From an uncultured Candidatus Saccharibacteria bacterium (GTDB taxonomy: Bacteria; Patescibacteriota; Minisyncoccia; Phycocordibacterales; UBA5272): a stretch of 64,000 nucleotides of DNA. Below, one piece after another: positions 18,262 through 61,559 of the stretch; position 1 is the stretch's first letter, and each line of letters begins with the position of its first letter. A model generated the notes under the pieces. The model made no database searches, was not told the DNA's origin, and saw only the letters and a list, made by a program, of their open reading frames with translations. The stretch covers positions 10,193-74,192 of the forward strand of contig CAYJED010000002.1 in assembly GCA_964369115.1 (NCBI GenBank), read 5' to 3'. The position numbers were made by a program, and so were the translations under genes.

Positions 18262-18399
18262 CAGTATTTGGTAACAAAAGCACTCGAGACGCTCTCGCGA
18301 CCCCTATTCAAATCCCAACGCACATGAAGCAGTTCATGTGCTTCTACTCTGTACAGAAATCAAAATACCAGGGCAAGAAGCCTTGGTATTTTGATTTTG
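18262..18399 (-). repeat. tRNA-3'-flank structured repeat, copy C (terminator hairpin + conserved core CGCGACCCCTATTCAAATCCC + GGTAACAAAAG)
   Basis: Shares conserved core with copies at 21121-21285, 60566-60773, 61389-61559; contains inverted copy of tRNA-Asp T-loop/T-stem (GGGATTTGAA). Confidence 0.7.
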
Positions 18400-18473
18400 C
18401 GCAGTGAATGGGATTTGAACCCACGACCCCCGCCGTGACAGGGCGGTGCTCTAACCAGCTGAGCTACCACTGC
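18400..18473 (-). tRNA. tRNA-Asp (anticodon GTC)
   Basis: Manual cloverleaf: GCAGTGG acceptor, CCGCC/GGCGG anticodon stem, loop CTGTCAC, T-loop TTCAAAT, discriminator G. Confidence 0.85.
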
Positions 18474-18718
18474 ATATGTTTATGTTTTATGACAAGAGCT
18501 TTGTTTTATTTTGTGCCCCCTGTCGCACCGCGGTGCTCGCTATTTTTTTTCGGAGTAAACTCCTATGAGCTGAGCTACCGCTGCAATTACTTATATTATA
18601 CCACAAATACTTTATATTTCAAATCCACTAAAATACCAAAAGAATCTACATTTAGACATGGTACACTATTTGCTATTGTCGCATTTTCACTACTAACTAA
18701 TAACGAATAACGATTCTT

Positions 18719-19945
18719 ATGGCAAAAGCATTTTCAGCAAAACAGTACTTTAAAAAAATTTACGCCCCAGACCTTATTGTTGAATTGTATAAGCGACACA
18801 ATATTGTTGCTCTTTTTGAAATAACAGAACAGACTCCTCGTAAAAATGCTGTGGGAATTTTTACTGATTTTTATAGCAGTCTTTCACCTGAAGAGAAGAT
18901 ACTCGTAGATGAAGATCTGGCACTTGTAGCAAGCGTCTCAACACAATACGCACCATCACTGTGTATCAACCTTCTTAAGAAAAAAGGCATCCCGCATGAA
19001 GTAACACAAATTGAATGTACCTCAGATCACGATAAAACAATGTACTACTATCTTTTTCATAAAGATATTTTTGATGAAATGTTTTTCTTCCATGATTTCT
19101 ATACCAGTAAAGGCTACATGCGCTACGAAGCAAAGAAGGTTGATCTCGAGGCCGCATCGTTTGCCACAACTGAACTTACAAAAGAATTTACAAGAATTGT
19201 AAATAAAGACGAAAATCAAACAGAATGTTCAGTAAACCATAACGTATTAGAAAACATCCTCTATGTAACAGCTCAGTTTTCAAGTGGAAAAGAAATAGTT
19301 ACGGAGCAAGATAAAGAAACGCTTACAATGCGCCCTGTTACAAAAAAGAAAGAGGAGAAGATTCACATCGCCTATCTTCCAGAAGACGAGGAAGTGCTCA
19401 TTAAATACACTGGAGGAAACTATGAGAAACTTATATTCCTCGATACATTTTTACGCATTGTATGTAAAAGTGGCTACGAAGCAAAAGAAGAATCCTATTC
19501 CCTTACATCATTTTCTCGTGATGATTTTGATATAGCAAAAACAAACAAAGGTGTACCACTCATGACCTGGAAAGTTAAAGGGGTGAGTATTTCTTTTGGA
19601 CAAGATAAAGCAAAGAAAAAAATTAAATTCACTATCCCAAGTAGTATGCACGAAAGTGGCATGACCCCTTTACTTACTACACTTCGTGATATTGGAATAG
19701 AAAAAGCATACAAGGAAGCATCGATTGATTCAGTTATTCTTGGTATGACATTTGTAAACAAAGACAAACCAGAAAAGAGTATCCCGCTTAACGTTACCGT
19801 AAGTCGTTCAAAGTCTTCTCTCTGCTCGCTCTTTACTTATGACCGCTACGCACGAAGCCTTCTTAAAGAAGCCGGCATTGATAATGGTTTTGTAGAAGCA
19901 GTAAAAAAAGAAAAAGACAACATGGAAAAGAAGTGGGAGATGTAA
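18719..19945 (+). CDS. hypothetical protein (408 aa)
   Basis: Long ORF, no recognisable domains; in islet bracketed by tRNA-linked repeats. Confidence 0.5.
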   Translation: MAKAFSAKQYFKKIYAPDLIVELYKRHNIVALFEITEQTPRKNAVGIFTDFYSSLSPEEKILVDEDLALVASVSTQYAPSLCINLLKKKGIPHEVTQIECTSDHDKTMYYYLFHKDIFDEMFFFHDFYTSKGYMRYEAKKVDLEAASFATTELTKEFTRIVNKDENQTECSVNHNVLENILYVTAQFSSGKEIVTEQDKETLTMRPVTKKKEEKIHIAYLPEDEEVLIKYTGGNYEKLIFLDTFLRIVCKSGYEAKEESYSLTSFSRDDFDIAKTNKGVPLMTWKVKGVSISFGQDKAKKKIKFTIPSSMHESGMTPLLTTLRDIGIEKAYKEASIDSVILGMTFVNKDKPEKSIPLNVTVSRSKSSLCSLFTYDRYARSLLKEAGIDNGFVEAVKKEKDNMEKKWEM

Positions 19946-19989
19946 GATACAAGAAAAGCAGTCCTGTGGACTGCTTTTCTTTTACAAAG

Positions 19990-21039
19990 TTAAATTATGT
20001 ATGAATGACGAAGCTTTGTTTTAAGTTCTGCTTCATTACAATCTATAGCACGGTCTGGAAGATCATTAATAAGGTCTATCTCTTGTTGATTAAATTTATT
20101 TCTATGTGAAGCAATAAGATGTAATACAATCGAATCAACAACATAACTTTTACCAGAAACACCTTGTAGTTTATAACCAACATTACGTTCAAGAGGCATT
20201 CCGCAACCACAGCTATGATAAATAATACCTCTATATCCTGGAGGCGGGAGACCGTACTCACTTTGCACTTTAATTTTCTCTCCTGTTTTACAAGCTGCCC
20301 ACACATCTTTAGTCGCATCATCGACAATTAATGTTGCCTCACCACTGCGAGCCATCCAGTTAAACCAAAGAGATGGTTCTTTTTCCATGGATTCTATAGC
20401 TTCAGAGCCCTCTGTAACACCAAATAATTCATTCAGGGTATTTCGTATATAATCAGAACTTAAATTAAAAGGAATACTCATTCTATCAGCATCCTTTTTA
20501 ATAACATCGATCCAATAGTAAATTTGATTGAACGAAGATTTAATTTCATTAGCAGAATCATTATTTGGTTTTTTACAATAATCTATAATTTTAGGCAAAA
20601 TTATATTAAAAAAATTTCTAATAATATTACCTGGCGGCTTATCTGGCGGATAAGGTAAATCCAATAGCGCCCTATCATTAAAGGCATTAATAAAATTATC
20701 AATAAATCCATTCATTTTATTGATTGTTAAAGAAAGTTGTTCATCTGTTTCGCTACTTACTTTAATATAATCAGGTGACCGTGGTAACACTGCTTCGGTA
20801 CTATATTTTTTATCTTTACAGAGATCGTTATATTCATCTCTTGCTTGAGATACAGACTGATATACTTGTGATAAACTCGTATCCACGTAGAAACTGCGGC
20901 CTATCTGAATAAATTCATCCATGTAACTAACGGACGCTAAAGGCTCATGAAGATGTGGCGACTGTTTGCTTTCTTCTTTTTGAACTTCTCCTTCAGATTG
21001 ATTTGTGAACAACTTTGATGCATCATTACTAGGTTCCAT
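19990..21039 (-). CDS. hypothetical protein (349 aa)
   Basis: Long ORF, convergent with previous; C-terminal YHSCGCG motif; no family recognised. Confidence 0.5.
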   Translation of the reverse strand: MEPSNDASKLFTNQSEGEVQKEESKQSPHLHEPLASVSYMDEFIQIGRSFYVDTSLSQVYQSVSQARDEYNDLCKDKKYSTEAVLPRSPDYIKVSSETDEQLSLTINKMNGFIDNFINAFNDRALLDLPYPPDKPPGNIIRNFFNIILPKIIDYCKKPNNDSANEIKSSFNQIYYWIDVIKKDADRMSIPFNLSSDYIRNTLNELFGVTEGSEAIESMEKEPSLWFNWMARSGEATLIVDDATKDVWAACKTGEKIKVQSEYGLPPPGYRGIIYHSCGCGMPLERNVGYKLQGVSGKSYVVDSIVLHLIASHRNKFNQQEIDLINDLPDRAIDCNEAELKTKLRHSYII

Positions 21040-21120
21040 AAATTTATTTTTTTACTATAAATAAAGTATATATATATACGGCGTGTAAAGCAATTTAAAA
21101 CAGCACTAGTTAGTGCTGTT

Positions 21121-21285
21121 TTCTTTTCTGTGTCGGTGGCGGGAAATTGGTCACAAAGTCTATTTTTGATTACAAAAATACAAGACTTCGCGACCCCTAT
21201 TCAATTCCCGAAGCGAAAGCCAAGCAGTTGGTTTTCTCCACCGACAAAAAAAACGAAGCTGAAGTGCTTCGTTTTTTCTTTTCTG
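21121..21285 (-). repeat. tRNA-3'-flank structured repeat, copy A (partial direct copy of tRNA-Met 3' end + GGTCACAAAG + covarying helix + core CTTCGCGACCCCTATTCAATTCCCG + terminator)
   Basis: 30-bp direct repeat ttttcttttctgtgtcggtggcggga(a)att at 21121 and 21276; core conserved with other copies; helix AAGTCT/AGACTT. Confidence 0.75.
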
Positions 21286-21359
21286 TGTCGGTGGCGGGAA
21301 TTGAACCTGCGACCTTCTCTTTATGAGTGAGATGCTCTAACCAACTGAGCTACACCGAC
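21286..21359 (-). tRNA. tRNA-Met/Ile2-type (anticodon CAT), elongator-like
   Basis: Manual cloverleaf: GTCGGTG acceptor, D-arm GCTC/GAGC, anticodon loop CTCATAA, T-loop TTCAATT, discriminator A. Confidence 0.8.
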
Positions 21360-22182: not shown

Positions 22183-22253
22183 AGCGGAGTAGAGTAGAGG
22201 TAACTCACGAGGCTCATAACCTCGGGACACTGGTTCGATTCCAGTCTCCGCAA
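22183..22253 (+). tRNA. tRNA-Met (anticodon CAT), possibly initiator (1:72 mismatch)
   Basis: Manual cloverleaf: AGCGGAG/CTCCGCA acceptor with A1:A72 mismatch, anticodon stem CGAGG/CCTCG, loop CTCATAA, T-arm ACTGG-TTCGATT-CCAGT. Confidence 0.7.
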
Positions 22254-22263
22254 CAAGTAAACA

Positions 22264-30293: not shown

Positions 30294-31073
30294 CTAAGCG
30301 AAAAGAAGGGCGATAGAGAATATATCTGCACCTGTGAACAACACAATAAGGAATGCTACAACAATAAACGGAACAAAAGGAATCGGTGTGCTTGTTTTAA
30401 TTTTTTTTCCAGAAAGAAAATATTTATACATAAGCCCATAAAAAGCGCCAAACCAAACGGAAAGAATGAAAACGGCGAAACCTTGCTGTACACCAAAAAA
30501 AGCTCCAACACCAAAGAAAAGAACAACATCACCAAATCCGACACCTTTTCCTTTTGTAATAAGCCAGATAATCAAAAAAGGCAGAGCAACAAAAAGAGGT
30601 GCAGACAAAGTGACCAGTGAAAAATCTTCTTGCGCTCTCATTAAAAAAACAACAAAGGAAAGTAGCGAAAAAATAGTAATAAATGAAAGTGGTATATATG
30701 AGTGCTTATTGTCGTAAAGAGCCATTGCTCCAAGCACTCCAAATAAAAGAGTATAAAAAACAAGCCAAAAAAAACTTATCATTACAGAAGCGTGCCCAAC
30801 AAGGATCACGTGATAAAGGAAAAAAAAAGAAATTCCAAATAATATTTCAACGATAAGAGATGAAACTCCGTAGTCAGTTTTGCAATATCGACATCTCCCT
30901 TTTAGCCAGATAAAAGAAACTATTGGAATAAGATCAAGAGGACGAAGTGTTTCACCACAAGAAAGACACTTACTTCTACTTTTTGTAATAGGCGCAACAT
31001 GGAGTCTAGAAACAATAACTTGAACAAAACTACCGATCGAAGCACCATAAAGAAAAGAGAGGATTGCTAACAT
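30294..31073 (-). CDS. pilD: prepilin peptidase (A24 family)
   Basis: CLSCGETL...RCRYCKT zinc-binding tetracysteine, polytopic membrane domain. Confidence 0.85.
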   Translation of the reverse strand: MLAILSFLYGASIGSFVQVIVSRLHVAPITKSRSKCLSCGETLRPLDLIPIVSFIWLKGRCRYCKTDYGVSSLIVEILFGISFFFLYHVILVGHASVMISFFWLVFYTLLFGVLGAMALYDNKHSYIPLSFITIFSLLSFVVFLMRAQEDFSLVTLSAPLFVALPFLIIWLITKGKGVGFGDVVLFFGVGAFFGVQQGFAVFILSVWFGAFYGLMYKYFLSGKKIKTSTPIPFVPFIVVAFLIVLFTGADIFSIALLFA

Positions 31074-31221
31074 GGAGTAAAATAAATAATAATAATATAT
31101 TCTTAAGTATATAGTTAAACAATAGAATTTTACACTTCATTATAAACACTTTAACGAAGCAACATTATCTTGGACAATTAATCTTAGACTAAGAGCTAAG
31201 AGAAACAGTACATAAGATTTC

Positions 31222-31252
31222 AAAAAAAAAGCGGGCAGTGCCCGCTTTTTTG
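31222..31252 (-). terminator. strong rho-independent terminator after major pilin
   Basis: aaaaaaaaagcgggcagtgcccgcttttttt. Confidence 0.85.
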
Positions 31253-31288
31253 TTTAGCTAAGATAGAAACTTCTTTTAGAAAAACAGA

Positions 31289-31987
31289 TTATTGCTGTGA
31301 AGTAACATCAAAGATACAATCTTCTACAGCGACACAAGTACTACTAGACTGTTCAGAGTAAGGAGAGACAGCTGGAAGATCATTAATTTTTGATTCGAAA
31401 TCAGATCCATTAGTAGGCACAGGACTTCCTTCTACTATAGACGCTGGAAGGCTGGATGAAGCAGCGGAGGTAAAAAGGTTAGTTCCGTTATTAACGAAAG
31501 TTGCAGTCATGAAGTTACCGTTGTACACCGCACAGAAAGGAACAGCGAGTGCGCTTGATAGGGTTGCAGAAATACAGTCACGATCAGTTTCAAGAGCTGG
31601 ACCATATACTTCAAGTTTTACACCAAAGTGATACGCAAAAATCTGATCCTGAGCACCTGTTGATGAAGCTGTATAATATGTGTAAGCAAAAGCATCACGG
31701 GCATTTGATGTAGTAGAAGCAGCAAATGTAGGAAGAAGCGGCATAAACTGAGGTGAAAGATCTTTAAGATCAATTGGATACTGAGCGGAGTTTGATTCAG
31801 CGTATTGCTCAAGAGCAAGCTGTGTTGATTTAAGTTCGGCAATCTTCTTCGCGTCACGTGCTTTTTTACGCGCACTTTGAATTGGGGCAGCAATAATAGT
31901 TGAAAGGAGACCGATAATAGCGATCACCACAAGAAGTTCGATAAGGGTGAATCCACGAACACCTGATTTTGTAAATTTGTTTGACAT
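31289..31987 (-). CDS. pilA: type IV major pilin
   Basis: RGFTLIELLVVIAIIGLLSTI canonical prepilin leader and N-terminal helix; own terminator. Confidence 0.8.
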   Translation of the reverse strand: MSNKFTKSGVRGFTLIELLVVIAIIGLLSTIIAAPIQSARKKARDAKKIAELKSTQLALEQYAESNSAQYPIDLKDLSPQFMPLLPTFAASTTSNARDAFAYTYYTASSTGAQDQIFAYHFGVKLEVYGPALETDRDCISATLSSALAVPFCAVYNGNFMTATFVNNGTNLFTSAASSSLPASIVEGSPVPTNGSDFESKINDLPAVSPYSEQSSSTCVAVEDCIFDVTSQQ

Positions 31988-32108
31988 AATATTTTTCTAT
32001 CTTTTTGTAGATACTTTAAAGTATATACCCATTATTTTATAAAACACAAGTATTAAAGATAAATTGTGTGGATAATTAAAATAGATTGTAAATAAAGGTT
32101 TTTTAAAC

Positions 32109-32140
32109 AAAAATACACATTTTACTTAATGTGTATTTTT
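32109..32140 (-). terminator. palindromic hairpin between pilC and pilA
   Basis: aaaaatacacatt-ttactt-aatgtgtattttt. Confidence 0.55.
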
Positions 32141-32168
32141 ATGTTTTGTTAAAAAAAGTAATAAAAAA

Positions 32169-33392
32169 CTAACTAATTGCATCAGTGAGAGAATACATAG
32201 GGAGAAGAATAGCAGACACAAGCACACCTACACCGACTCCCAAACTTACGATCATCGCAGGCTCAATAAGTCCAATCATTGAATCAATTGCTGTGTCGAG
32301 TTCACGTCTATAAAAGTTAGAGAGATTTTTAAGGATATAAGCAAGCTCTCCTGTTTCTTCTCCAATGTGAACCATTTGTACAAGAATATTTGGAACAAGA
32401 GGCTCTTCATATAAAGCCTTTGAAAGAGACTTTCCCGTTTGAACTTTAACAGAAACTCTACCCATCAATTGTTTATAAACACGATTCTCAACAATTGAAG
32501 TAGTAATATCGATAGACCGAACAATTGGTACACCATTTGAGAGCATGGTACTCATGTTATCTGACAAACGTTGTAAGAAAATTTTCTGAAGAAGATTATT
32601 AAGCACCGGCACTTTAATGAGATTGCTATCAACAATGTACCCTCCTTCGTCAGTTTGCGACCACTTATAAAACCAAAAACCAAGACCAAAGAGAATAGGG
32701 AAAGTAATTGGTCCATATTTTACGAAAAGATCCGAAACAAAGAGAACAATTTGTGTCACCATCGGAAGCTCAGCACCTTCCTCAGCAAACATGTTTGCCA
32801 TTTTAGGGACCACAAATGTAAGCATGCCCACCATAATTGCAAAGAATGTTCCAATAACAAATCCTGGGTAAGTAAGAGCTTTTTTGATCTTCTGGTTAAG
32901 TTCGTAGTTACGATCAAGATAGTCAGCGAGAAAAAGAAAAACTTCATTCAATTTTCCACTTTCTTCACCCGCTTTAACCATGTTAACGTAAAAATTTGAA
33001 AAGAGGTCAGGTCTACGAGACAAGGCTTCTGAAAGAGCAATACCTGACTCGATATCATCAGCAACCCCCATAATCTCTTCTTGAAGAGTCTTGTTTTCAT
33101 TTTCTTGTGCAAGAAGACGGAAGGCACGCAATGCTGACACCCCCGCCTCAAACAAGGTCGACACCTGTCGTGAAAAGAGCACCACATCTTTTGGTTTTAT
33201 CTTTTCTTTAAAAAGCTTACCTGTTGCCTGGTAAATAATATTATTTTTCTTATCTACCTTTTCTTTAACTTCTAAAATAGTAGTAATACCTTTTTTTTGA
33301 AGAACAAGAATAGCGCTATCAACAGACGTTGCTTCAACTTCCCCCTCTTCTTTGTTTCCGTTATTATTAAGCCAAGAATATTCAAAGATCAT
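32169..33392 (-). CDS. pilC: type IV pilus assembly platform protein (GspF family)
   Basis: GspF-family repeats, 3 TM segments, 407 aa. Confidence 0.85.
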   Translation of the reverse strand: MIFEYSWLNNNGNKEEGEVEATSVDSAILVLQKKGITTILEVKEKVDKKNNIIYQATGKLFKEKIKPKDVVLFSRQVSTLFEAGVSALRAFRLLAQENENKTLQEEIMGVADDIESGIALSEALSRRPDLFSNFYVNMVKAGEESGKLNEVFLFLADYLDRNYELNQKIKKALTYPGFVIGTFFAIMVGMLTFVVPKMANMFAEEGAELPMVTQIVLFVSDLFVKYGPITFPILFGLGFWFYKWSQTDEGGYIVDSNLIKVPVLNNLLQKIFLQRLSDNMSTMLSNGVPIVRSIDITTSIVENRVYKQLMGRVSVKVQTGKSLSKALYEEPLVPNILVQMVHIGEETGELAYILKNLSNFYRRELDTAIDSMIGLIEPAMIVSLGVGVGVLVSAILLPMYSLTDAIS

Positions 33393-33409
33393 AAAAAATT
33401 AACTAATTA

Positions 33410-34468
33410 TTAAAGAAGTCTATCGAAAAGTCCTCGACGGCGAGCATATGTATATGCAACATCGCGTGCAACTGTTCCCTCACGAACAAGTGAGGCGAGA
33501 TATCTATCAAGGTCAATCATTCCGTCTTTTGCACCCATTTCAATGATCATATCAATTTCGTGTACACGGTTTTCGCGTATAAGATTTGATACAGCTCCTG
33601 TATTTAAAAGAAGCTCAAAAGCAGGAACCATACCCCCTCCTGTTGTAGGAATAAGCTGCTGAGAAAGAATGCCTATAAGAGAGGATGAAAGCTGTAAGCG
33701 AATCTGGTTTTGCTGATCAGAAGGAAATGAATCGATGATACGGTTGATTGTCTGAGCAGCTGAGTTACTGTGAAGCGTCGCAAGAACAAGGTGACCTGTC
33801 TCAGCAGCAGTTACCGCTGTTGCCATAGTATCTCTATTTCTCATCTCTCCAATCATAATGACATCAAGATCTTGACGGAGGGACTGAACAAGAGCTGTGT
33901 CAAAATCACTTGTATCGGTACGAACTTCTCGTTGCTCAATAATAGATTTATCATGATCAAAACGAAATTCCGCAGGATCTTCAATGGTGAGGATATGCCG
34001 CCTAGACTCTTTGTTAATTTGCTGAATCATTGCAGCAATTGTTGTTGACTTACCCTGCCCAATTGAACCAACAACAAGAAAAAGTCCTTGGCGTTCACGG
34101 GAAACAGCTATAAGCTGCTGAGGAAGAGCGAGCTCTTCTATTGTCCTTACTCGAGGCAGTAAACGAAGGGCAATTGAAATAACCCCACGCTGAAAACATG
34201 CATTCCCTCGAAGCCTGTACTCTTTACGATGCTCGTAAGAAAAATCTAACTCTTGAGTTACTACAAAGTTAGTAAGCATTTTTTCGCCAATCATTTGACG
34301 CAAAAAACCTAGAGTGTCTTCTGGTGTGAGCTCTTTTTTTCTCGTAAGAGGGATAAGGTCTCTGTTAATACGAAGTGAAGGGAAGTGAGCTACAGTAAGG
34401 TGCAGGTCTGAACCTCCTTCCTTTACTAAGGTCATAATAAGATCGTCGAGCTCTGTTTCGTAATTCAT
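33410..34468 (-). CDS. pilT: twitching motility/retraction ATPase
   Basis: 352 aa; Walker A GSIGQGKSTTIAAMI, Asp/His boxes typical of PilT. Confidence 0.85.
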   Translation of the reverse strand: MNYETELDDLIMTLVKEGGSDLHLTVAHFPSLRINRDLIPLTRKKELTPEDTLGFLRQMIGEKMLTNFVVTQELDFSYEHRKEYRLRGNACFQRGVISIALRLLPRVRTIEELALPQQLIAVSRERQGLFLVVGSIGQGKSTTIAAMIQQINKESRRHILTIEDPAEFRFDHDKSIIEQREVRTDTSDFDTALVQSLRQDLDVIMIGEMRNRDTMATAVTAAETGHLVLATLHSNSAAQTINRIIDSFPSDQQNQIRLQLSSSLIGILSQQLIPTTGGGMVPAFELLLNTGAVSNLIRENRVHEIDMIIEMGAKDGMIDLDRYLASLVREGTVARDVAYTYARRRGLFDRLL

Positions 34469-34539
34469 ATACTAAAAAGTATAGCAAGCAAATTGCTCGA
34501 GGCAATTGTATAACTCACACATAACTTATAATTACTTTT

Positions 34540-36330
34540 TTAAAGCTCAGCAAGTTCAACAAATGGAATCTTCCCCTCCATACATTTAAGCATCGCATCT
34601 TCTTTTAGAGTTACCATTCCATTTTTACGTGCCAGCTTAAAGATCTCCTCCTCTCCTTTGTTACGTAGAATTGCTTCTTCTATTTCGTCTGTAATAGAGA
34701 GAACTTCAAAAACAGGAACACGCCCTTTAATACCTGTTGGAAACTGAGCATTCCCTTTTGCTTCATACAAAGGTCTGTCAATTTGAAATTCTTTTTTAAA
34801 TTCATCAGGAAGGTCTTCGAACTGCTTATGAACCAATTCCTTTAAAGAAGGTGTCATTTCCATTTGTTCACCGCAACTATCTGCAATACGACGAGAGAGA
34901 CGTTGACCAAGCGCAGCAATAAGAACTGGCGCAATAAGATACGACTCAATACCCATATCAAGAAGACGAGTTACCACACCAATTGATGTGTTGGTGTGGA
35001 TTGTTGAAAATACCAAGTGACCAGTAAGAGCCGCTTGAATAGCAAGCTGTGCGGTTTCACCGTCACGAATTTCTCCCACCATGATTACATCAGGGTCCTG
35101 ACGAAGGATAGAACGAAGCCCTGAAGCAAATGTATACCCAATATCAGGGAACACCTGAGACTGATTCATTCCTCCCACGTTATATTCCACAGGGTCTTCA
35201 AGTGAAACAACGTTCTTATGGTCACGATCAATTTCGTTAAGCATCGAGTAAAGCGTTGTGGTTTTACCGGATCCTGTAGGACCAGAAATAAGTACCATAC
35301 CATATGGCGCGCCGATTGCTTCACGAATATGTTTCATCTGAAGTGTAGAAAAACCAAGATCATTGAGAAGCTTTACACCTTTAATGCTGTCAAGAATACG
35401 GATTACAATCTTTTCACCATAATACCCTGGGAACGATGACACACGGTAGTCAATTTTACGATCACCAAACTTAGTACTAAATCGCCCATCTTGAGGTTTA
35501 CGCTTCTCATCAAGCTTCATAGCGCAAAGGATTTTGATACGGGCAATAAGCATCGGATGTAATTTTGCAGGGAGTGCAGCAATTTGTTCGAGGCGTCCAT
35601 CCATACGAACACGAGTACGAACAGAAAGACCGACGTGTTCTATGTGAATATCGGAAGCCGTATTATCAATAGCATAACGCAAAATAGTACTGAAAATATC
35701 AGGAATTGGGAGTTTTGCTAGATTTTTATCAAGAACACTTGATGCATCTTGAAGATCAATCTCCTCGTCACCTTCTGGACCATCTTCAAGACTGTCATCA
35801 TCTTTTGCAACATAAGAAATGATTTCATTATCCACCTTATCAGTTACACTGGCTTTTTCTTCTTGCAAATCATTTGGTGAAGTGATGCCAAAATGTTTCT
35901 TAAAGGCATCATAAGAAACGAGGTATACCTTATAGGCTTGATGTGTTGACCCGAAAAGAAACTGAAGACTTGATAGAACGTTACCATGTTCAGGATCAAC
36001 AATACCAACAAACAAAACCTCATCACGAAACTCAAGCGGAACTGCCAAAAACTGCTTAGATTGGACCACATTTATATACTTAGTAAGCTCTTTGTCGTCC
36101 GCAATATCTTCTCTGTAAATAGGGAGACCATGGAGGGTACTTCTTACTTCAGTAATTTCATCGCTTGAGATATTTTTTTTAGCGAGAAGGTCATCAACAA
36201 GAATCCCTTCTGTTGAAGAGATTGTAGCATCGATTTCTTTTGCTTCGATTTCAGTTAATTTATTTTGGCTAACAAAAAGATCAAGGAGCAACATACGGCG
36301 CGAAAGGATCTGGTCGGCCTCGAGAATCAC
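34540..36330 (-). CDS. pilB: type IV pilus assembly ATPase (GspE family)
   Basis: GPTGSGKTTTLYSML Walker A, C-terminal tetracysteine-like region; 596 aa. Confidence 0.85.
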   Translation of the reverse strand: MILEADQILSRRMLLLDLFVSQNKLTEIEAKEIDATISSTEGILVDDLLAKKNISSDEITEVRSTLHGLPIYREDIADDKELTKYINVVQSKQFLAVPLEFRDEVLFVGIVDPEHGNVLSSLQFLFGSTHQAYKVYLVSYDAFKKHFGITSPNDLQEEKASVTDKVDNEIISYVAKDDDSLEDGPEGDEEIDLQDASSVLDKNLAKLPIPDIFSTILRYAIDNTASDIHIEHVGLSVRTRVRMDGRLEQIAALPAKLHPMLIARIKILCAMKLDEKRKPQDGRFSTKFGDRKIDYRVSSFPGYYGEKIVIRILDSIKGVKLLNDLGFSTLQMKHIREAIGAPYGMVLISGPTGSGKTTTLYSMLNEIDRDHKNVVSLEDPVEYNVGGMNQSQVFPDIGYTFASGLRSILRQDPDVIMVGEIRDGETAQLAIQAALTGHLVFSTIHTNTSIGVVTRLLDMGIESYLIAPVLIAALGQRLSRRIADSCGEQMEMTPSLKELVHKQFEDLPDEFKKEFQIDRPLYEAKGNAQFPTGIKGRVPVFEVLSITDEIEEAILRNKGEEEIFKLARKNGMVTLKEDAMLKCMEGKIPFVELAEL

Positions 36331-36622
36331 TCATTGGAACTACTTCTGGGAGATCCGTAAATGACTTAAAGAGAGTTAATTCTGTAAAAGCAAAATCTTT
36401 TTTTGTAAGTGCAACTTTCTGCTTTGGGTCAACCATAACAGCACCTGCTTTTTGAAGTTTTGGACCAAAAATAGCAACATCGGCTGCAGTAAGAGGTGCT
36501 GTAGGGTTAGATGAAACACCGGAAAACATAACACCGTAAAAGAAATAGAGGCACCACCCCAATAAGCCGAGACTAATGATTCCAACAAGTAAACCTGTAA
36601 ATTTAGATGGGTTAATTTGCAT
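36281..36622 (-). CDS. small membrane-anchored pilus assembly-associated protein (PilP/PilO-like, putative)
   Basis: 113 aa, N-terminal TM, position between pilO-like and pilB. Confidence 0.35.
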   Translation of the reverse strand: MQINPSKFTGLLVGIISLGLLGWCLYFFYGVMFSGVSSNPTAPLTAADVAIFGPKLQKAGAVMVDPKQKVALTKKDFAFTELTLFKSFTDLPEVVPMSDSRGRPDPFAPYVAP

Positions 36623-36640
36623 AGTAAATAAATGTAAGAA

Positions 36641-37225
36641 TTACTTAAAGTAATACACCTTTGAAGTAACACTAATACTAAGAGCTTCCGGATCTTCTAT
36701 TTTATCAACATCACCAGACTTTTCTTCTTGGCGTTTAATGGTAACACTGTCATGAACATAAAATCTAAGATTTTTTTCATAAGCCTCAATAAATGATTTA
36801 AAAGCAGGGTACCGAGATATTAAGTTAAACGTAACAAGATATGAACCAAGATCTTTATTTTGATTTCTTTGATTTAGAACAACACCAACATTAGTTACCG
36901 CAACTCCATTTTTATTTCCAATAGTTATTATCTCATTTCGAAGCTTAATTGGATCAATCGAAGGAGGAAGCATTGTTTCAATCTTTTTTCTAAGATCACC
37001 GTCAATTTCTTTATACTGTTTTTCTGTTCTATTTATATTTTCTTCAACAGAAATAATTTTACTGAGAGTGTCTTTATACTGAGTATTTCTGTCTCTTAAC
37101 GTTACAATACTTGCTTCTGGGGTAAAAACAACTCCAGGTAAACCAGAATGGACAGGCTTAATATACCCAAGATACAAAACAACCGGGGTAATAATCATAA
37201 GAATGTTGAGTAATTTAGGTGACAT
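36641..37225 (-). CDS. PilO-like pilus assembly protein
   Basis: N-terminal TM + coiled coil + periplasmic domain; operon context. Confidence 0.5.
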   Translation of the reverse strand: MSPKLLNILMIITPVVLYLGYIKPVHSGLPGVVFTPEASIVTLRDRNTQYKDTLSKIISVEENINRTEKQYKEIDGDLRKKIETMLPPSIDPIKLRNEIITIGNKNGVAVTNVGVVLNQRNQNKDLGSYLVTFNLISRYPAFKSFIEAYEKNLRFYVHDSVTIKRQEEKSGDVDKIEDPEALSISVTSKVYYFK

Positions 37226-37230
37226 AAATT

Positions 37231-37941
37231 TTATTGAGGTGTTGATGTTGAAACTTCTGGTGGACGTCCTTCAACAAAAACAATTTGATCTGACGTCACA
37301 CCTTGAACAATTACAGGTGTTGAAACTCTTACCTTAATTGAATTTCTTGAATCAGAAATACCAGCTGTCTTTGGTTGAGGGGCAATCTTACTGTACTGAG
37401 CAAGATTAAGAGCCTCAAGCTGTTGAATAAGTGCTCTATAATTTGTTGTTACTACAGCAAAATCAACAGTATAACCAGACCCATTAACAGGTTTTTTTAA
37501 GCTAAATTCATCAAAAACAACTTGTCTTTCAACAACATCTTCAAGAAACTTAAGGGGTGAGCGCACAGAAACATACTCCTGTAAAAGTTTTTCTAAATTC
37601 TTAACTCTAGATGAAAAATTTACCATCTCTGAGATTGGGTAATCTTTAAAAGATGCGTCACGGGTTAAGATTTCCTGTTTCGTTGAAGCTATGCTTGATT
37701 TTAGGTAAGTTGAATAAACAAATAAAACAAGACTAACAAGAATAGAAAGAGATGCTATAACGAAAAGAAGGATTTGTAAGTATGCATTAACACTAATTTC
37801 CCCTCCTCTTTGCTGAACAAAGAGAAAAGGAGAACTTGAGTCTGGCGCCACACCTTGAGGTTGTGTGCCGTTTTGAACTCCTTGTATACCCTGACCAGGC
37901 ACAGGAGCTGCTTCTGATTGATTACTAAGTGAAAATGCCAT
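37231..37941 (-). CDS. PilN-like pilus assembly protein
   Basis: Single TM (LQILLFVIASLSILVSLVLFVY) followed by coiled coil; operon context. Confidence 0.5.
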   Translation of the reverse strand: MAFSLSNQSEAAPVPGQGIQGVQNGTQPQGVAPDSSSPFLFVQQRGGEISVNAYLQILLFVIASLSILVSLVLFVYSTYLKSSIASTKQEILTRDASFKDYPISEMVNFSSRVKNLEKLLQEYVSVRSPLKFLEDVVERQVVFDEFSLKKPVNGSGYTVDFAVVTTNYRALIQQLEALNLAQYSKIAPQPKTAGISDSRNSIKVRVSTPVIVQGVTSDQIVFVEGRPPEVSTSTPQ

Positions 37942-37953
37942 GAGGTACTACGT

Positions 37954-39021
37954 TTATGAAATTAATTTTTTTAGAGCACACCCAAGTGCAACAGCATAAC
38001 TTGGACCAACTCTCTCCATCATTTCTGACAAAAAATCAGGAACAACAACTTGTTCAAATGGGGTGACTACTCGTCCTGCAATGTGCACTGTTTTACTGTA
38101 CACACTTATAAGACTTGGTACACGTGCACCACCCCCTGTTAAAATTATTCCTTCTATAGTTTGATTATACTTTCTTTCGTACATTAGGGATAGTCTTGCG
38201 ATCTCACCAAACAGTGGATAACTGGAAAGCTCTAACACGTCCTTAAGATAAGGATTAGAAGAATCACCTTCATACCCAAACACTCTCTTAGACTCTTCAG
38301 CTGTGTCGATAGTAACAGAGAGTGCTCTAGAAATTTGCATAGTCCCCTCTTGCGAACCTCTACTAATAACATGCATATCAAGCACTATCCCCTGATACAC
38401 AACAGAAAGCACAGTTGAAAGTGAGCCGATATCTACATACATTACCATTTTATGTGTGTGTGGTGGTGAACTTCTCAAAAGAGAGTACCCATGAATCTCG
38501 TACTCAACATTCTTTAATTCCAGTTTTTGAGAAATAGCAGCAGATGAAGTGAGAGCAGAATTATTTACAGCAGCAAGAACCACACTGATCATCTTTTCAT
38601 CGTTAATAAACTTAACGGTTTGGGGAATATGCCACCAGTCCATCTGAACTTCAGTAAGGGGAATTGGAATATACTTACGAGCCTCTATGGGCATCATAGT
38701 TCTCAATTCATCGTCAGACACTTTTGGCACATTTACCAAAGAAACAAAGGCAGCTGTTGGGTCAATCGCAATAACAGCATCTCGTGCGGTCACTTTTGCT
38801 TCCTTAAACAAATCCTGTACAGCTTCTACAAGCTTTTCCTCTCCAAGATGGACTCCTTGTCCAATCTTTAATCCGCCATAAGGTCCAAGAGCAACTTCAC
38901 CATAGGTATCAAGAACAATTCTATTTTTTTCCTTACGAAGCTGAACCACTTTCACAGAAGAAGCTCCGACATCGAGGCCGATCGCTTGTCCTAATTCTTC
39001 TTTCTTAAAAAAGTTAAGCAT
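37954..39021 (-). CDS. pilM: type IV pilus assembly protein PilM (actin-like ATPase)
   Basis: IGLDVGASSVKVVQL actin-fold N-terminus, 355 aa. Confidence 0.8.
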   Translation of the reverse strand: MLNFFKKEELGQAIGLDVGASSVKVVQLRKEKNRIVLDTYGEVALGPYGGLKIGQGVHLGEEKLVEAVQDLFKEAKVTARDAVIAIDPTAAFVSLVNVPKVSDDELRTMMPIEARKYIPIPLTEVQMDWWHIPQTVKFINDEKMISVVLAAVNNSALTSSAAISQKLELKNVEYEIHGYSLLRSSPPHTHKMVMYVDIGSLSTVLSVVYQGIVLDMHVISRGSQEGTMQISRALSVTIDTAEESKRVFGYEGDSSNPYLKDVLELSSYPLFGEIARLSLMYERKYNQTIEGIILTGGGARVPSLISVYSKTVHIAGRVVTPFEQVVVPDFLSEMMERVGPSYAVALGCALKKLIS

Positions 39022-58423: not shown

Positions 58424-58462
58424 CAAACCCAGTTATTCGTTATTAGTAATTCGTAATTAGTC

Positions 58463-59174: not shown

Positions 59175-59175
59175 T

Positions 59176-59206: not shown

Positions 59207-59295
59207 TATACAATATCTCCTTGTTACTGAGAAAATATAGGCGTACAATGTATATATCGCTGAAGTATTATCTAAGGCGATGACTGGAGGTTCAT

Positions 59296-59496
59296 ATGGC
59301 AAAAAAGGTAACAACTGCCGAAAAACCTGCTGAACATGACGCTGGAATTCCGGCTCAGATCAAAAATCCGAAAGAAAGGGAGGCCTGGAAAAAAAGAACT
59401 CTCGAGATCAGACTTCAAGAAGAGCGCTCCGCACTTTTCGCAGGCTTCTTCAGAGAAAGTCCGATTTATCCAGGACTCAATCGCTGCTTCCAGTAA
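59296..59496 (+). CDS. hypothetical small protein
   Basis: 66 aa; ggagg SD 6 nt upstream of ATG. Confidence 0.4.
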   Translation: MAKKVTTAEKPAEHDAGIPAQIKNPKEREAWKKRTLEIRLQEERSALFAGFFRESPIYPGLNRCFQ

Positions 59497-59583
59497 GCGC
59501 AGCAACAAACACCACAATCGTATGGTGTTTTTCTTTTTCCATACACGTAACTATAAAATAATCGTATACTAGAGTAATAATCT

Positions 59584-59808
59584 ATGAAAGATACATGTCA
59601 CGAACGTCACGGCCGTTCTTTTGCAAAAGCTGTTAGTTATAGAGTTGTAAGTATTATTATTGACCTTACTATTGTTTTTCTAATTACAAAAAAAGCTGAT
59701 TTAACACTAGGAATTGTGCTTCTTAGTAATACTGCAAGTATTTTTGTGTACTACTTCCATGAGCGCGCATGGAACATTGTCCACTTAGGAAGACGACCAG
59801 CTAAATAA
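59584..59808 (+). CDS. small membrane protein, DUF2061-like
   Basis: RSFAKAVSYRVVSIIIDLTIVFLIT resembles DUF2061 (RSxxKAxSWRxx) family. Confidence 0.45.
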   Translation: MKDTCHERHGRSFAKAVSYRVVSIIIDLTIVFLITKKADLTLGIVLLSNTASIFVYYFHERAWNIVHLGRRPAK

Positions 59809-59920
59809 ACACTTACCTTAAAATAACTAAGGATACTTCTAAAAATCTTTATTTTTGCGAAAAAATATTTTTAGCAAACTATTTAAAGTTTTTTTCTATA
59901 AGCGTATACAGTTTTTACTT

Positions 59921-60487
59921 TTAAGGTTTTTCAATAACATTTTTTGATCTCATTTTCTTTAAAAATTTAATAAATAAAAATACAAGTAAAACGTTACATA
60001 CCATAAAGGACAAAATAACTGTATAGCCTTCTCGGGTCAAAACGTGCAGAAGATTACCTAACTGCCCAAAAATAGATTTTATATCCCAATAAAATCTATA
60101 TAGTAGAAATGTTGAAGGGTGTTCAGATAAGAGCTTTATATTTGATAGGCTATCAACTGACACCTGATATACACCCGCAACAAGTGCGGTGTTACTATTG
60201 TTAACTAAATTTTTTAAAAAAATACTATCTTCCTTTACAACAATTAGCCCCTTGCGGCAACTTGCACTGAAAAACCGCCACTCAACCTTAAACCCATTAA
60301 TAAATTTATCACTCTCATATTTTGCGATATAAATATCTTTATGACGAAAATTTTCATACCCTTGTGGATATAAAATCGGAAGACAGCTACTAGCGTAAAC
60401 ATAGTTGTTGCTAAATATAAAGTTACCAGAGATTAAGATAAATAAAATAAAAAAATATTTTTTCATAAAAATTAACGAGCTAGACAA
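59921..60487 (-). CDS. hypothetical membrane protein
   Basis: 188 aa, N- and C-terminal hydrophobic segments; downstream of tRNA-Phe-linked repeat. Confidence 0.45.
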   Translation of the reverse strand: MSSSLIFMKKYFFILFILISGNFIFSNNYVYASSCLPILYPQGYENFRHKDIYIAKYESDKFINGFKVEWRFFSASCRKGLIVVKEDSIFLKNLVNNSNTALVAGVYQVSVDSLSNIKLLSEHPSTFLLYRFYWDIKSIFGQLGNLLHVLTREGYTVILSFMVCNVLLVFLFIKFLKKMRSKNVIEKP

Positions 60488-60565
60488 GCTTTTTACTTGC
60501 TATTCTGTATACTTAAAAGTATACAGAATAGCAAGTGTTTTTTTGCAAGATATAGAAAAGTATAA

Positions 60566-60773
60566 CTTTGCGACCCCGTATTATCGCCTGCCAAACATGA
60601 CGCAGGTTGCTGTTTTTTTAAAAACAGGCTCGGTCACAGAACTCCTCGTCGCAAGCTCCTCGAGTAAGTTCTGCGACCCCTATTCGAACCTGGACGAAAG
60701 TGACGCAGGTCACTTTCTGTCCCAGCACAGAAATACAAAAGCCGCATCATATGATGCGGCTTTTGTATTTCTG
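60566..60773 (-). repeat. tRNA-3'-flank structured repeat, locus D (two tandem cores: CTTTGCGACCCCGTATTATCGCCTGCC and GGTCACAGAACT...CTGCGACCCCTATTCGAACCTGG) plus 60-bp perfect palindrome embedding tRNA-Phe acceptor 3' strand
   Basis: Core conserved with loci A/B/C; helix CAGAACT/AGTTCTG covaries; palindrome 60721-60780. Confidence 0.7.
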
Positions 60774-60846
60774 TGCTGGGACCCAGGCTCGAACTGGGGA
60801 CCCTTTGCTCTTCAGGCAAATGCTCTACCAACTGAGCTATCCCAGC
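60774..60846 (-). tRNA. tRNA-Phe (anticodon GAA)
   Basis: Manual cloverleaf: GCTGGGA acceptor, anticodon stem TTTGC/GCAAA loop CTGAAGA, T-arm CCCAG-TTCGAGC-CTGGG. Confidence 0.85.
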
Positions 60847-60917
60847 GTATTTAGTTCTAAAAACATGCACACTACTGTTAATAACATTTGCCTGCAAATG
60901 AGCTGTAAAACTTCTTT

Positions 60918-60945
60918 GCCAACTGAGCTATCCAAGCGTATTTAC
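60918..60945 (-). pseudogene. tRNA-Phe-like 5' fragment (acceptor + D-arm only)
   Basis: minus strand GCTTGGATAGCTCAGTTGGCAAAG matches 5' 20 nt of tRNA-Phe then diverges. Confidence 0.4.
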
Positions 60946-61035
60946 TTTTAAATTAGGTATTTATAGACTAACGTAAACAGCATTTTCTTAACGAAAATGT
61001 CTCATTATTATAACACAATTTAGATATGGTTTCAA

Positions 61036-61374
61036 TTACTCAGAAATTCCATCTGGAAGAACTTCCTGCGGTCTATTTTTCTTCTCTAAAAACTCATTAA
61101 GTGCTTTAGTTTCTGGGAGCTGATTACGGAGGTTAAAAAACTGATCAAGTGTCTGCTGAATCATTGAGCCGTTTGTTGTAAGTGTAGTGATAAATGGTCG
61201 AACATAGTAGTATGCTCCTCCAACAAAACCAAGAACAAGGAGCCAGTAGAATATCCTTGTGAAGCTAGCAAAATACTGTTGACGACGAATCGATTTAAGG
61301 ACTTCATGATTTTCAAGGGTCATCTCATAAATAGCATCAAGCTTTTCTTCGTTCGTAAGATCTTTTTTACTCAT
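61036..61374 (-). CDS. hypothetical membrane protein
   Basis: 112 aa, central TM helix (YWLLVLGFVGGAYYYV). Confidence 0.45.
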   Translation of the reverse strand: MSKKDLTNEEKLDAIYEMTLENHEVLKSIRRQQYFASFTRIFYWLLVLGFVGGAYYYVRPFITTLTTNGSMIQQTLDQFFNLRNQLPETKALNEFLEKKNRPQEVLPDGISE

Positions 61375-61388
61375 CTAAAAAGTATATC

Positions 61389-61559
61389 ATTTATTATGGT
61401 GCCCTCGGCAGGAATCGGTCACAAAACTACCTCACTTCGTTCGAAGTAGTTTCGCGACCCCTATTCGATTCCTGTCGTACGACACGCAGGTGTCGTACTC
61501 CTAATACCGCAAAATATAAAATACCCATCACTTTGTTAGATGGGTATTTTTATATTTTG
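61389..61559 (-). repeat. tRNA-3'-flank structured repeat, copy B (direct partial copy of tRNA-Arg 3' end ending ...CGAGGGCACCA + GGTCACAAAAC + helix + core TTTCGCGACCCCTATTCGATTCCTG + terminator)
   Basis: 19-bp direct repeat gtgccctcggcaggaatcg at 61399 and 61559; helix AAACTAC/GTAGTTT; inverted copy of tRNA-Arg T-loop/T-stem. Confidence 0.75.

Follow-up and report, generated by a model that had tools for sequence, protein, structure and literature searches.

The stretch of DNA analysed here, called the window throughout, comprises 64,000 nucleotides (nt) of contig CAYJED010000002.1 (positions 10,193 to 74,192, forward strand) from an uncultured Candidatus Saccharibacteria bacterium of the Patescibacteriota. 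Five transfer RNA (tRNA) genes were called in it by ARAGORN and Rfam, four of them on the minus strand, and directly 3' of each of these four lies a short structured element on the tRNA-coding strand. A covariance model places the elements at 61407-61501 (after tRNA-Arg), 60622-60720 (tRNA-Phe), 21139-21239 (tRNA-Met) and 18260-18344 (tRNA-Asp), with scores of 98.8, 89.4, 82.6 and 70.3 bits, respectively (E-values from 7e-22 to 5e-15), and nowhere else in the 64 kb. The core sequence GAATAGGGGTCGCG, with 0-1 mismatch, is likewise confined to these four sites, and the compound pattern GGGGTCGC..TGTGACC gives three matches in the window where none is expected. The second tRNA-Met of the window (22183-22254, plus strand) has no element downstream. 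As described below, the four copies belong to an element family which is genuine, widespread and apparently undescribed.

Every unit consists of a first hairpin (HP1) of 9 bp with a CUGC loop, a helix (P1), a GAAUAGG bulge, and a second helix (P2, GGUCGCG/UGUGACC) that is capped by an exchangeable hairpin (HP2). For its description we divided the 3' end of the tRNA gene into segment a (nt 56-64, the 3' half of the T-loop and the T-stem 3' strand), segment b (the acceptor 3' strand and the discriminator) and segment c (the trailer), the inverted copies being written a', b' and c'. The order of a unit is then tRNA[1-55]-a-b-c-terminator-(c'-b')-HP1-a'-GAA-UAGG-P2/HP2-a-(b-c), so that the conserved core is flanked by an inverted copy of the target (a', running from nt 64 to nt 54) and by a direct one (a). 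In the window copies a' is the 8-9 nt segment that follows HP1 and precedes the constant GAAUAGG. All tails start with a, from C56 on; those of the Met and Arg copies run into b, and the Met tail also into about 12 nt of c. A copy of the acceptor 5' strand (b') stands just before HP1 in the Met and Phe copies. The core that separates a' from a is 45-70 nt long, and up to ~330 nt in other classes of core.

The first copy follows tRNA-Arg(CCU) (61560..61631; Rfam tRNA score 65.2 bits), and all its parts, like those of the other three, lie on the minus strand. Gene and element are set apart by a hairpin that resembles a terminator and has a T-run (61511..61558), as recognised from the sequence. 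HP1 (9 bp, CUGC tetraloop; 61477..61498) is supported by the minimum free energy (MFE) fold and by covariation. The P1 5' strand (CAGGAAUC) and the bulge GAAUAGG occupy 61460..61474, this strand and the next GAA together being the reverse complement of tRNA-Arg nt 54-64. P2 (GGUCGCGA/UUGUGACC, with two G.U pairs) is continuous with HP2 (61417..61459), again by fold and covariation. The P1 3' strand then merges into a direct copy of the T-stem 3' strand, the acceptor 3' strand and the discriminator, followed by CCA (61397..61416). The resulting direct repeat is 19 nt exact (61399 versus 61559, i.e. 61559-61577).

The second copy follows tRNA-Phe(GAA) (60774..60846, ARAGORN and Rfam). Its terminator hairpin (60728-60773) is extended by the acceptor 5' strand copy UGCUGGGA (60720-60727), the two filling 60720..60773. 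According to the covariance model and the fold, the element itself (60625..60717) comprises HP1 (60696-60717), the P1 5' strand (60686-60693), the bulge (60679-60685), P2 with HP2 (60632-60678) and a truncated P1 3' strand (60625-60631), just 7-8 nt of the 3' copy being retained. Beyond it, at 60566..60609 (minus strand), there is a fifth, truncated unit with a partial HP1, the P1 5' strand CAGGCGA and a core cut after GGGGUCGCAAAG. This remnant, an older member of an array, is also present in a 99%-related locus (L184).

The third copy belongs to tRNA-Met(CAU) (21286..21359, ARAGORN and Rfam), whose terminator hairpin (21246-21277) is followed by the acceptor 5' strand copy GUCGGUGG (21238-21245), together 21238..21277. 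HP1 (21215-21236), the P1 5' strand (21203-21210), the bulge (21196-21202) and P2 with HP2 (21149-21195) make up the element proper (21149..21236). The P1 3' strand, with the copied 3' end of tRNA-Met and 12 trailer nt, follows at 21119-21148, and a second terminator hairpin at 21099-21120 (together 21099..21148). The direct repeat is 25 nt exact, or 30 nt with one extra T (21121 versus 21276, i.e. 21276-21305). The fourth copy, after tRNA-Asp(GUC) (18400..18473, ARAGORN and Rfam), is degenerate (18264..18398, including the terminator at 18357-18398). Its HP1 (18320-18341), P1 5' strand (18310-18317) and bulge (18303-18309) are readable, while P2/HP2 is shortened (18270-18302) and has TGTTACC (UGUUACC) in place of TGTGACC, and the P1 3' strand (18264-18269) is decayed. 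The MFE folds of the window copies reproduce the architecture, with z-scores of -6.45, -5.29 (Phe), -3.81 (Met) and -2.35 (Asp). An earlier reading of this DNA (the original prediction) had claimed that the four loci share one module, that direct repeats of the tRNA 3' end occur at two of them and that each real tRNA is followed by its own terminator hairpin, all of which agrees with these coordinates. It had not singled out HP1, and the degeneracy of the Asp copy, the short tail of the Phe copy and the fifth unit are additions to its description. It had also noticed the inverted copy of the target, the key feature of the element, without interpreting it.

Partial 5' copies of tRNA-Asp (18568-18584, minus strand) and tRNA-Phe (60919-60937, minus strand) were also observed about 90-100 nt upstream of the real genes. 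They consist of the acceptor 5' strand and D-arm and have the acceptor allele of relatives (GCAGCGG and GCTTGGA). The tRNA-Phe fragment is kept in the related loci L184, L186, L190, L191 and L194, and is tandemly duplicated in L189.

The structure was drawn by hand (HP1 of 9 bp, P1 of 8 bp, P2 plus the base of HP2 of 14 bp) and tested on 106 distinct copies. In these, 92.9% of the cells are paired, compared with 74.7% in shuffles and 34-43% in slid registers. Double-sided changes occur in 682 cells versus 218 in shuffles, and the observed value was reached by 0 of 500 shuffles. All nine pairs of HP1 covary (97.8% paired), as do six of the eight pairs of P1 (82.6% paired), and RNAalifold independently recovers the same helices. 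The covariation between helix strands that had been proposed from the four window copies therefore extends to the family. The P2 5' strand (GGGGUCGCG; 61451-61459 and 21187-21195 in the window, and in all other copies) was also seen to resemble tRNA nt 43-51, the variable loop and the T-stem 5' strand (window tRNA-Asp GGGGGUCGUGG, tRNA-Met AAGGUCGCAGG), a likeness by which P2 may also be tRNA-derived.

When one genome per species was scanned with the pattern GAATAGGGGTCGC-N15-45-TGTGACC, 108 stretches were obtained, with about 120 copies in ~42 Patescibacteria genomes, besides nine further matches that are evident chance hits in GC-rich genomes. The record titles of the carriers include Paceibacterota, Parcubacteria, Nomurabacteria, Gracilibacteria and 'uncultured Saccharibacteria'. 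The covariance model was built from the 106 distinct copies (three from the window, the others public; the Asp copy was not in the training set). It retrieves 169 copies in 99 loci of ~42 Patescibacteria species, and only the four described above within the window. A metagenome collection of contigs of at least 1 kb contributed 57 additional non-redundant copies. The elements are ~100-190 nt long, lie directly 3' of tRNA genes and are known after 17 tRNA types (15 amino-acid types among the GTDB copies, plus Tyr and Ile from the metagenomes). Hairpins of HP1 type (at least 7 bp, loop CUKC) occur 15-170 nt downstream of 95 of 205 tRNAs and upstream of 3 of 213. For the annotation of genomes of the candidate phyla radiation this means that about half of the tRNA genes in these ~1-Mb genomes have such a unit at their 3' side.

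The module found in the window (class A) is the smallest form, and also the most common one, in a superfamily whose cores reach ~330 nt. Many tRNAs in the same loci have no class A core and still have the scaffold of terminator, b', HP1 and a'-GAA; the larger cores on this scaffold all end in a tRNA 3' copy. Class C, found after tRNA-Arg(UCG), reads GAAU-GCCGCAGUCAUG-[hairpin]-CGGACGAGGCGG-GGUCGCGAG... and equals class A with an extra branch at the position of UAGG. Class B is homologous (...CCGGAGUAUG-[hairpin]-GACGAGGAGCGGGA-GGCGAG-[hairpin]-CUUGUC). At least four more core classes, of 90-330 nt, stand after other tRNAs (L002, L023, L040, L047, L059, L064, L068, L069, L021, L052 and others). 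Their recurring modules, CGAUUAGUAAAUCG...CCGWGAGG, which is common to these other classes, and CCGCAGU...ACGAGGNGCGGG, are not in Rfam. The element after tRNA-His of L021 has a core of ~330 nt and a contiguous b'a', without HP1.

In a search of the window and 27 loci against Rfam 15 at gathering thresholds only genuine tRNAs and one SAM riboswitch scored, and the elements had no match to any family, among them tRNA, tmRNA, Y RNA, group I intron, RNase P and the self-cleaving ribozymes. Permissive Rfam scans of one element and of the ~330-nt core gave chance-level matches only, and a full-text search of the published literature found no description of such an element family. These results are in line with the earlier statement that no described class matches. 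Among viral contigs, the class A and class D patterns had no matches, and the 75 matches of the class B/C pattern were all chance hits in GC-rich sequence, none of them near a tRNA. The covariance model detects copies cleanly, and the family merits an Rfam-style description whichever of the interpretations discussed below is right. The riboswitch (RF00162, 60.3 bits) lies at 3982-4099 (minus strand) of L023, a Patescibacteria locus.

The most distinctive property of the elements is that each is fitted to the tRNA gene it follows. We examined the 93 GTDB copies with a same-strand ARAGORN tRNA at most 330 nt upstream. The register between tRNA and element was set from the acceptor stem, as the ARAGORN 3' coordinate carries one extra base. 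In 69 of the 93, at least 9 of the 10 positions compared (nt 56-65 of the own tRNA) form pairs with a', compared with 10% for tRNAs with other anticodons. Independent metagenome copies gave the same picture, with 9/9 pairing to the own tRNA in 28 of 37 and a control of 5%. The claim that each element is customised to the T-arm of its neighbour is therefore well founded. Position by position, a' is Watson-Crick complementary to the resident tRNA at nt 56-63 in 89-100% of copies, at nt 64 in 72% and at nt 65 in 20%. The constant GAA on its 3' side complements the universal T54-T55-C56, also, on a reading of the sequences, in the larger core classes, so that the inverted copy spans nt 64 to 54.

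Identity of the direct copy to the tRNA is 82-100% at nt 56-65 and falls to 49-70% at nt 66-73. The copy ends abruptly 1-38 nt from C56 with no preferred length, and a fixed target-site duplication was looked for and not found. In 19 of 92 copies the direct-copy strand has a stereotyped 2-nt insertion (CGA|AY|NN), which gives P1 a bulge. The a' duplex is more stable with the resident tRNA than with the element's own partner strand in 46 copies, and less stable in 9 (Wilcoxon p = 1.5e-5). Moreover, 24 copies have a partner strand that is truncated, substituted or interrupted by an insertion within its first 8 nt, and of the 80 a' positions thus orphaned 74 (93%) complement the tRNA. The changes in the partner strand are often C-to-U and still allow pairing with the G of a', and this wobble tolerance explains part of the apparent tracking of the tRNA by a'. 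In L098 and L016, a' fits the resident tRNA while the partner strand carries another allele.

Several properties distinguish the two strands. P2 has two G.U (G.T) pairs, which become C.A on the opposite strand; one is invariant by construction of the search pattern, and the other is G.U in 94 of 106 copies. Folds with DNA parameters are better for the sense than for the antisense strand (-26.7 versus -22.2 and -22.0 versus -19.5 kcal/mol). The heptamer d(GCGAAGC) is a classic, unusually stable DNA mini-hairpin. In the tRNA 3' flanks of L001-L108, GCGAAGC stands at hairpin tips 17 times on the sense strand, for ~1 expected, and its reverse complement 0 times. The sites are HP2 apices and short hairpins that replace the terminator after tRNA-Cys and tRNA-Gly. 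The G.U pairs, the better sense fold and the strand bias of GCGAAGC together argue that it is a single-stranded form of the tRNA-sense strand that matters, and this could be RNA or single-stranded DNA.

Between tRNA and HP1 a hairpin of terminator type with a T-run is present at each of the four window loci and, among the 82 adjacent public copies, in at least 58 (at least 71%). In ~20% of the adjacent copies the spacer is only 0-41 nt and no terminator stands upstream of the element. A long perfect hairpin that starts right after the discriminator is the usual style of terminator here, also at tRNAs free of elements, and its complementarity to the trailer is consequently not specific to the element. 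No promoter-like site was found upstream of the window copies.

The history of the elements was followed at orthologous positions, with the gene for a 112-amino-acid (aa) protein downstream of the Arg element as anchor, in eleven syntenic loci (99% to 52% protein identity). The slot after tRNA-Phe proved to be empty in L189 and L190 and occupied by class A in the window, L184, L186 (with two decayed extra units) and L192. It holds a class B unit in L187, whose HP1 and a' are the same as those of the class A copy of L073, a class D unit in L188, other cores in L193 and L194, and a decayed unit in L191. Close relatives can also keep terminator, HP1 and a' and differ in the type of HP2, as in the window Asp copy versus L004 and the window Arg copy versus L074 and L097. 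There has been no recent intragenomic burst, since hairpins of the same genome are no more alike than those of different genomes: 3-5% of same-genome pairs and 1-3% of different-genome pairs are at least 90% identical, and 6-9% of pairs at the same tRNA in different genomes.

Tandem arrays occur in L040, L094 and L097, where identical tRNA copies (with up to 19 nt of trailer) are combined with unrelated HP1 and HP2, and L186 also holds an array with truncated older units. In L187 and L191 the distal terminator is of the type common to relatives and the proximal one is new. The whole block of tRNA, terminator and element can be inverted relative to conserved flanking genes, at the Arg slot in L186, L188 and L192 and at the Phe slot in L188, L190 and L191. 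A decayed tRNA 3' end in the original orientation remains beyond the terminator in L186. A perfect palindrome of ~330 bp was observed at L057 2391-2642, with two complete elements head-to-head around one terminator and no tRNA between them, which reflects either fold-back duplication in the genome or a fault of the assembly.

In fourteen cases an element is orphaned, with no tRNA directly before it, and, where the context is readable, accessory DNA lies between the two. In L045, 3 kb separate tRNA-Leu(CAA) from the orphaned element and include, at 751-1419 (minus strand), a rolling-circle initiator of the filamentous-phage G2P/Phage_CRI type (31.8 bits, cut-off 21.7; phrog_702 replication protein). 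The cargo of other orphan copies includes ParB-fused and plain N6/N4 methylases, HTH_Tnp-like proteins, a HerA/FtsK ATPase, MazF and DUF5677. The border of such DNA can be read from the siblings L184 and L185 (99%), which are identical from the discriminator of tRNA-Arg through terminator, element and anchor gene. Upstream of this block L184 has methylase-island DNA where L185 has a glutaredoxin gene and tRNA-Arg, and the join falls exactly at the tRNA discriminator. On the integrative reading discussed below, the elements would mark hotspots of cargo DNA entry.

We also noted in these islands a conserved non-coding stretch of ~290 nt (L184 ~2075-2365, L076 ~6160-6400) whose end is formed by a hairpin similar to a core (ACGGGGTCTC[14 nt]GAGACC), with a pseudo tRNA 3' end behind it. 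The stretch adjoins an open reading frame of 613 aa and genes for ParB-fused N6/N4 methylases, and the 613-aa island protein has no match in Pfam, NCBIfam, PHROG or PDB. Neither integrase, transposase nor reverse transcriptase was found among 36 window proteins (the 28 largest and 8 near elements) or ~35 island proteins, and no conserved partner protein was found near the elements. The elements have no recombinase gene in cis, and no cognate integrase turned up in these sets. The original prediction had read the direct repeats as a possible footprint of integration. Presence and absence at the same slot, class turnover, arrays of unlike units, decayed remnants and cargo between tRNA and element speak for integration, but a repeat of 1-38 nt and the lack of an integrase in the window and the scanned islands do not fit its classical tyrosine-integrase type.

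The reading we lean towards, and hold tentatively, is that the elements are miniature, gene-less integrative elements of tRNA 3' flanks whose folded single-strand attachment hairpin mimics the T-arm. As mobile form one would expect a single strand, and a small circle [a b c T c' b' HP1 a' core] is the most plausible. A unit of ~180 bp is too short for easy circularisation as a duplex, owing to the stiffness of DNA, and a single-stranded intermediate is favoured for this reason. Within such a circle the single a-b strand would pair with both a' and b', which would account for the tRNA-like three-way junction, and the a'/a stem would reproduce, in folded form, the duplex of the tRNA gene at nt 54/56-64. 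A recombinase encoded elsewhere would exchange one strand pair between stem and tRNA gene, inside a, and replication would then fix the product. The tRNA would be rebuilt with the 3' end and terminator borne by the element, the hairpin arms would come to lie distal to these, and the host's own 3' end would follow the arms. On either side of the core, the product would have one target copy without function, the two being oppositely oriented. Arrays, with the newest unit proximal, would build up by repetition of such events, and cargo would be borne by the larger relatives.

This circle model would account for the inverted and direct target copies, the fit of a' to the real tRNA, the stem bulge and the arrays, as well as for the missing recombinase gene, the turnover, the terminator carried by each unit and the shared distal terminator of L187 and L191. 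A terminator between tRNA and element, awkward for an RNA gene, is expected of an element that restores the tRNA 3' end. The layout would follow the logic by which the phage CTXphi integrates at dif. CTXphi is described as having two dif-like sites in opposite orientation, ~90 bp apart, which form a forked hairpin in (+) single-stranded DNA (ssDNA). A single strand-pair exchange gives a pseudo-Holliday junction resolved by replication, and the product has one functional and two non-functional sites (PMC3089051; PMC3442271).

The likeness to integrative mobile elements exploiting Xer recombination (IMEX) of the CTXphi type can be stated feature by feature. Both have two opposite target-like sequences tens of nt apart, a hairpin stem that copies the double-stranded target, and an integrated state in which one target works and two copies are dead (here a'...a behind an intact tRNA, in 93 + 37 copies). 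They also have in common the absence of a recombinase gene from the element, tandem arrays at the target and a stem bulge. Unlike IMEX, the elements target the T-arm of 17 tRNAs instead of dif, with arms customised to each target, and have neither a dif-like 11-6-11 site nor recognisable Xer-binding arms. They are also ~100-190 nt long and gene-less, without coat or assembly genes, and no free ssDNA form was seen. The one rolling-circle initiator found is that of L045, on the opposite strand, and there is none in the mini-elements.

In defining properties the elements depart from every family considered, i.e. Rfam families, YrlA, group I introns, attC sites, miniature inverted-repeat transposable elements (MITE) and repetitive extragenic palindromic (REP) sequences, integrase islands and dif/Xer IMEX. 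Their logic is closest to that of hairpin-attP elements, in whose manner they may work, but they belong to none of these families. With integron attC sites they share a site defined by a folded single strand, diverse sequences within an array and a tandem arrangement, but they have no R''/R' (RYYYAAC/GTTRRRY) and no cassette open reading frames, no IntI was seen, their invariant arms are GGTCGCG...TGTGACC and the target is a tRNA. Neither a 5-bp duplication of CGAAT nor a crossover of integron type (G|TT, at G53/T54) fits the junction sequences. Bacterial interspersed mosaic elements (REP/BIME), Correia elements and RUP, which are MITE-like, are also short, non-autonomous intergenic palindromes near terminators. 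These, however, are near-identical within a genome, not tied to tRNAs and without copies of their neighbour, whereas only 3-5% of the same-genome pairs of our elements are at least 90% identical and their outer inverted repeat varies with the tRNA.

Several points weigh against an integrative element. There is no direct sighting of a free circular or single-stranded form, and the metagenome contigs, being of at least 1 kb, could not have shown one; the viral contigs are without any copy. The rolling-circle initiator of L045 is encoded on the strand opposite to the folding strand of the element and may be unrelated cargo. Divergence among copies is as great inside one genome as from genome to genome, and together with the compensatory change that preserves the structure of more than 150 copies this would also suit a host RNA under long-term purifying selection. 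The ~20% of copies with no terminator before them must be co-transcribed with the tRNA. In several loci the terminator type shared by relatives is the proximal one instead of the distal, so that the insertion point is only tentatively placed. The arms for 17 tRNAs are explained only through an analogy, by which they would be re-templated from hybrid att sites, and no recombinase is assigned to the elements.

If the elements are indeed integrative, hairpin-mimic integration, a mechanism so far known for filamentous phages at dif and for integron attC sites, would extend to tRNA genes and to gene-less elements of less than 200 nt. It would also offer a simple route of retargeting, in which the target is copied into the element's own attachment site. 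We consider it possible, with real reservations, that the family is either a self-templating, gene-less single-stranded mini-replicon or satellite of ~180 nt (DNA, conceivably RNA) or the first set of bacterial tRNA-specific guide RNAs. As a mini-replicon it may copy part of the tRNA gene it occupies into its own attachment hairpin and so reset its target without encoding a protein; as a guide RNA, there may be one per tRNA, encoded in the trailer of that tRNA. Either would be without precedent.

The alternative that survives best, though we judge it rather unlikely, is a host non-coding RNA made from the tRNA 3' trailer, by read-through or, in copies with no intervening terminator, directly. 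In it a'/b' would be a tRNA-specific antisense or guide, or P1 a decoy of the T-arm, and a protein that processes, modifies, checks or sequesters the tRNA or its fragments would be recruited by the conserved bulge and P2. Such a role is suggested by the invariable position of the elements on the tRNA-sense strand immediately 3' of the tRNA, and by the very strong compensatory covariation, G.U pairs included, over more than 100 diverged copies. It agrees too with paralogues that are old and diverged within a genome with no recent burst visible, with orthologous copies that persist between related species, and with the ~20% of copies that have no upstream terminator. An a' that stays complementary to the real tRNA even without its internal partner would suit a guide, and the point at which HP1 branches off is precisely the T-stem/acceptor junction, where a tRNA has its D and anticodon arms. 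On the other hand, a T-run hairpin resembling a terminator stands before at least 71% of the copies, the window copies lack a promoter-like site in front of them, a mature tRNA hides the target segment in its folded T-arm, and no conserved partner protein was found nearby. The element is dispensable and replaceable at orthologous loci, as the empty slots and switched core classes attest, there are redundant arrays and many decayed copies, and the many C-to-U changes of the partner strand make the tracking of the tRNA partly a matter of wobble tolerance. If such a trailer RNA does exist, it would be a new layer of tRNA biology in organisms poor in tRNA-processing and modification machinery.

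Known RNAs of this general kind do not provide a match. YrlA and tmRNA and the RNAs of tRNA 3' external transcribed spacers also have a tRNA-like junction of acceptor- and T-arm-like helices or lie within a tRNA transcription unit. YrlA needs a GNCGAAN0-1G motif, mimics of the D- and T-arms and an adjacent rsr gene (PMC4201824). The elements have no Ro-binding motif (GUCGCGAA has two extra bases) and no D-arm, and no TROVE protein appeared in the window scans; a likeness to the Ro60-binding helix of Y RNAs was dropped on comparison with the same paper as the motif is absent. Trailer RNAs of tRNAs are not otherwise known to be templated on their tRNA. Group I introns of Patescibacteria tRNAs come from the same phylum and likewise place extra structured sequence in tRNA genes, but they are at least 200 nt long and interrupt the tRNA, inside the anticodon loop (35/36; PMC13011429). 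The elements follow an intact tRNA and have no match to the Rfam intron models, and a group I intron was rejected on size, position and lack of a model match.

That the elements are a mutational by-product, in which perfect terminator hairpins provoke fold-back or template-switch errors that copy the tRNA 3' end, first inverted and then direct, seems quite improbable. Long perfect hairpins right after the discriminator are normal here, even at element-free tRNAs, and the ~330-bp palindrome of L057, the tRNA-plus-element blocks inverted in relatives, the partial 5' tRNA copies upstream and the variable length (1-38 nt) of the 3' copy would all suit such errors. They could not explain a core and HP1 conserved across ~42 species and 17 tRNA types, covariation that upholds three helices, or the stereotyped spacing and recurrence of core classes at different tRNAs. 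The results of the covariance model and of the covariation analysis largely refute this origin. Local rearrangements, namely the palindrome of L057, the inverted blocks and the 5' tRNA fragments found upstream, probably owe something to fold-back errors.

Very improbable, in our opinion, is an origin as scars of tyrosine-integrase islands or prophages in tRNA genes that have lost their cargo, the direct repeats being attL and attR. Such islands also insert at the 3' part of a tRNA, regenerate it and leave a direct repeat of its 3' end at the distal border, and cargo-bearing inserts do occur at the same tRNA 3' ends in L045, L184 and L076. The elements differ from them in having neither integrase nor cargo, a repeat of variable instead of fixed length, an extra inverted copy of the target and covarying hairpins. 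A stereotyped unit of ~180 nt with these features is not expected of random deletion remnants, no integrase was encountered among the window and island proteins scanned, and the viral contigs are without copies.

Extremely improbable is a free-standing gene whose tRNA-like product would have an acceptor stem and an encoded CCA of its own and would mature through RNase P and RNase Z as a tRNA does: the Met copy does have acceptor 5' and 3' copies, the Arg copy ends in CCA and the junction is three-way as in a tRNA, but of 93 copies only 40 have kept the acceptor 3' copy whole, 35 have b' and 13 have both, CCA follows the discriminator in 5 of 40 intact tails versus 6 of 93 tRNA genes and is not enriched, and tRNA models do not score the elements. 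A tRNA-like RNA of this design is therefore not what the family has in common; the encoded CCA of the Arg copy and the mimic of a tRNA 3' half with a free acceptor tail, both put forward in the original prediction, fail to hold as general features.

A few other candidates were discarded. A T-box-like leader of the downstream gene is contradicted by downstream genes that are unrelated and without Pfam domains and by copies that precede another terminator. Possible likenesses to the 5' end of tmRNA (GGAUUCGACGGGAUUUGCGAAAC), to L15 of Escherichia coli RNase P (AAAUAGGGGU) and, in larger cores, to RNase P CR-I (GAAAGUCCGG) were not confirmed and were dropped.

Apart from the elements, the window contains at 30294-39021 (minus strand) an operon resembling those of type IV pili and type II secretion, with genes for a prepilin peptidase, T2SSF, two T2SSE ATPases and PilM. 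This operon would be relevant if DNA uptake aids the spread of the elements.

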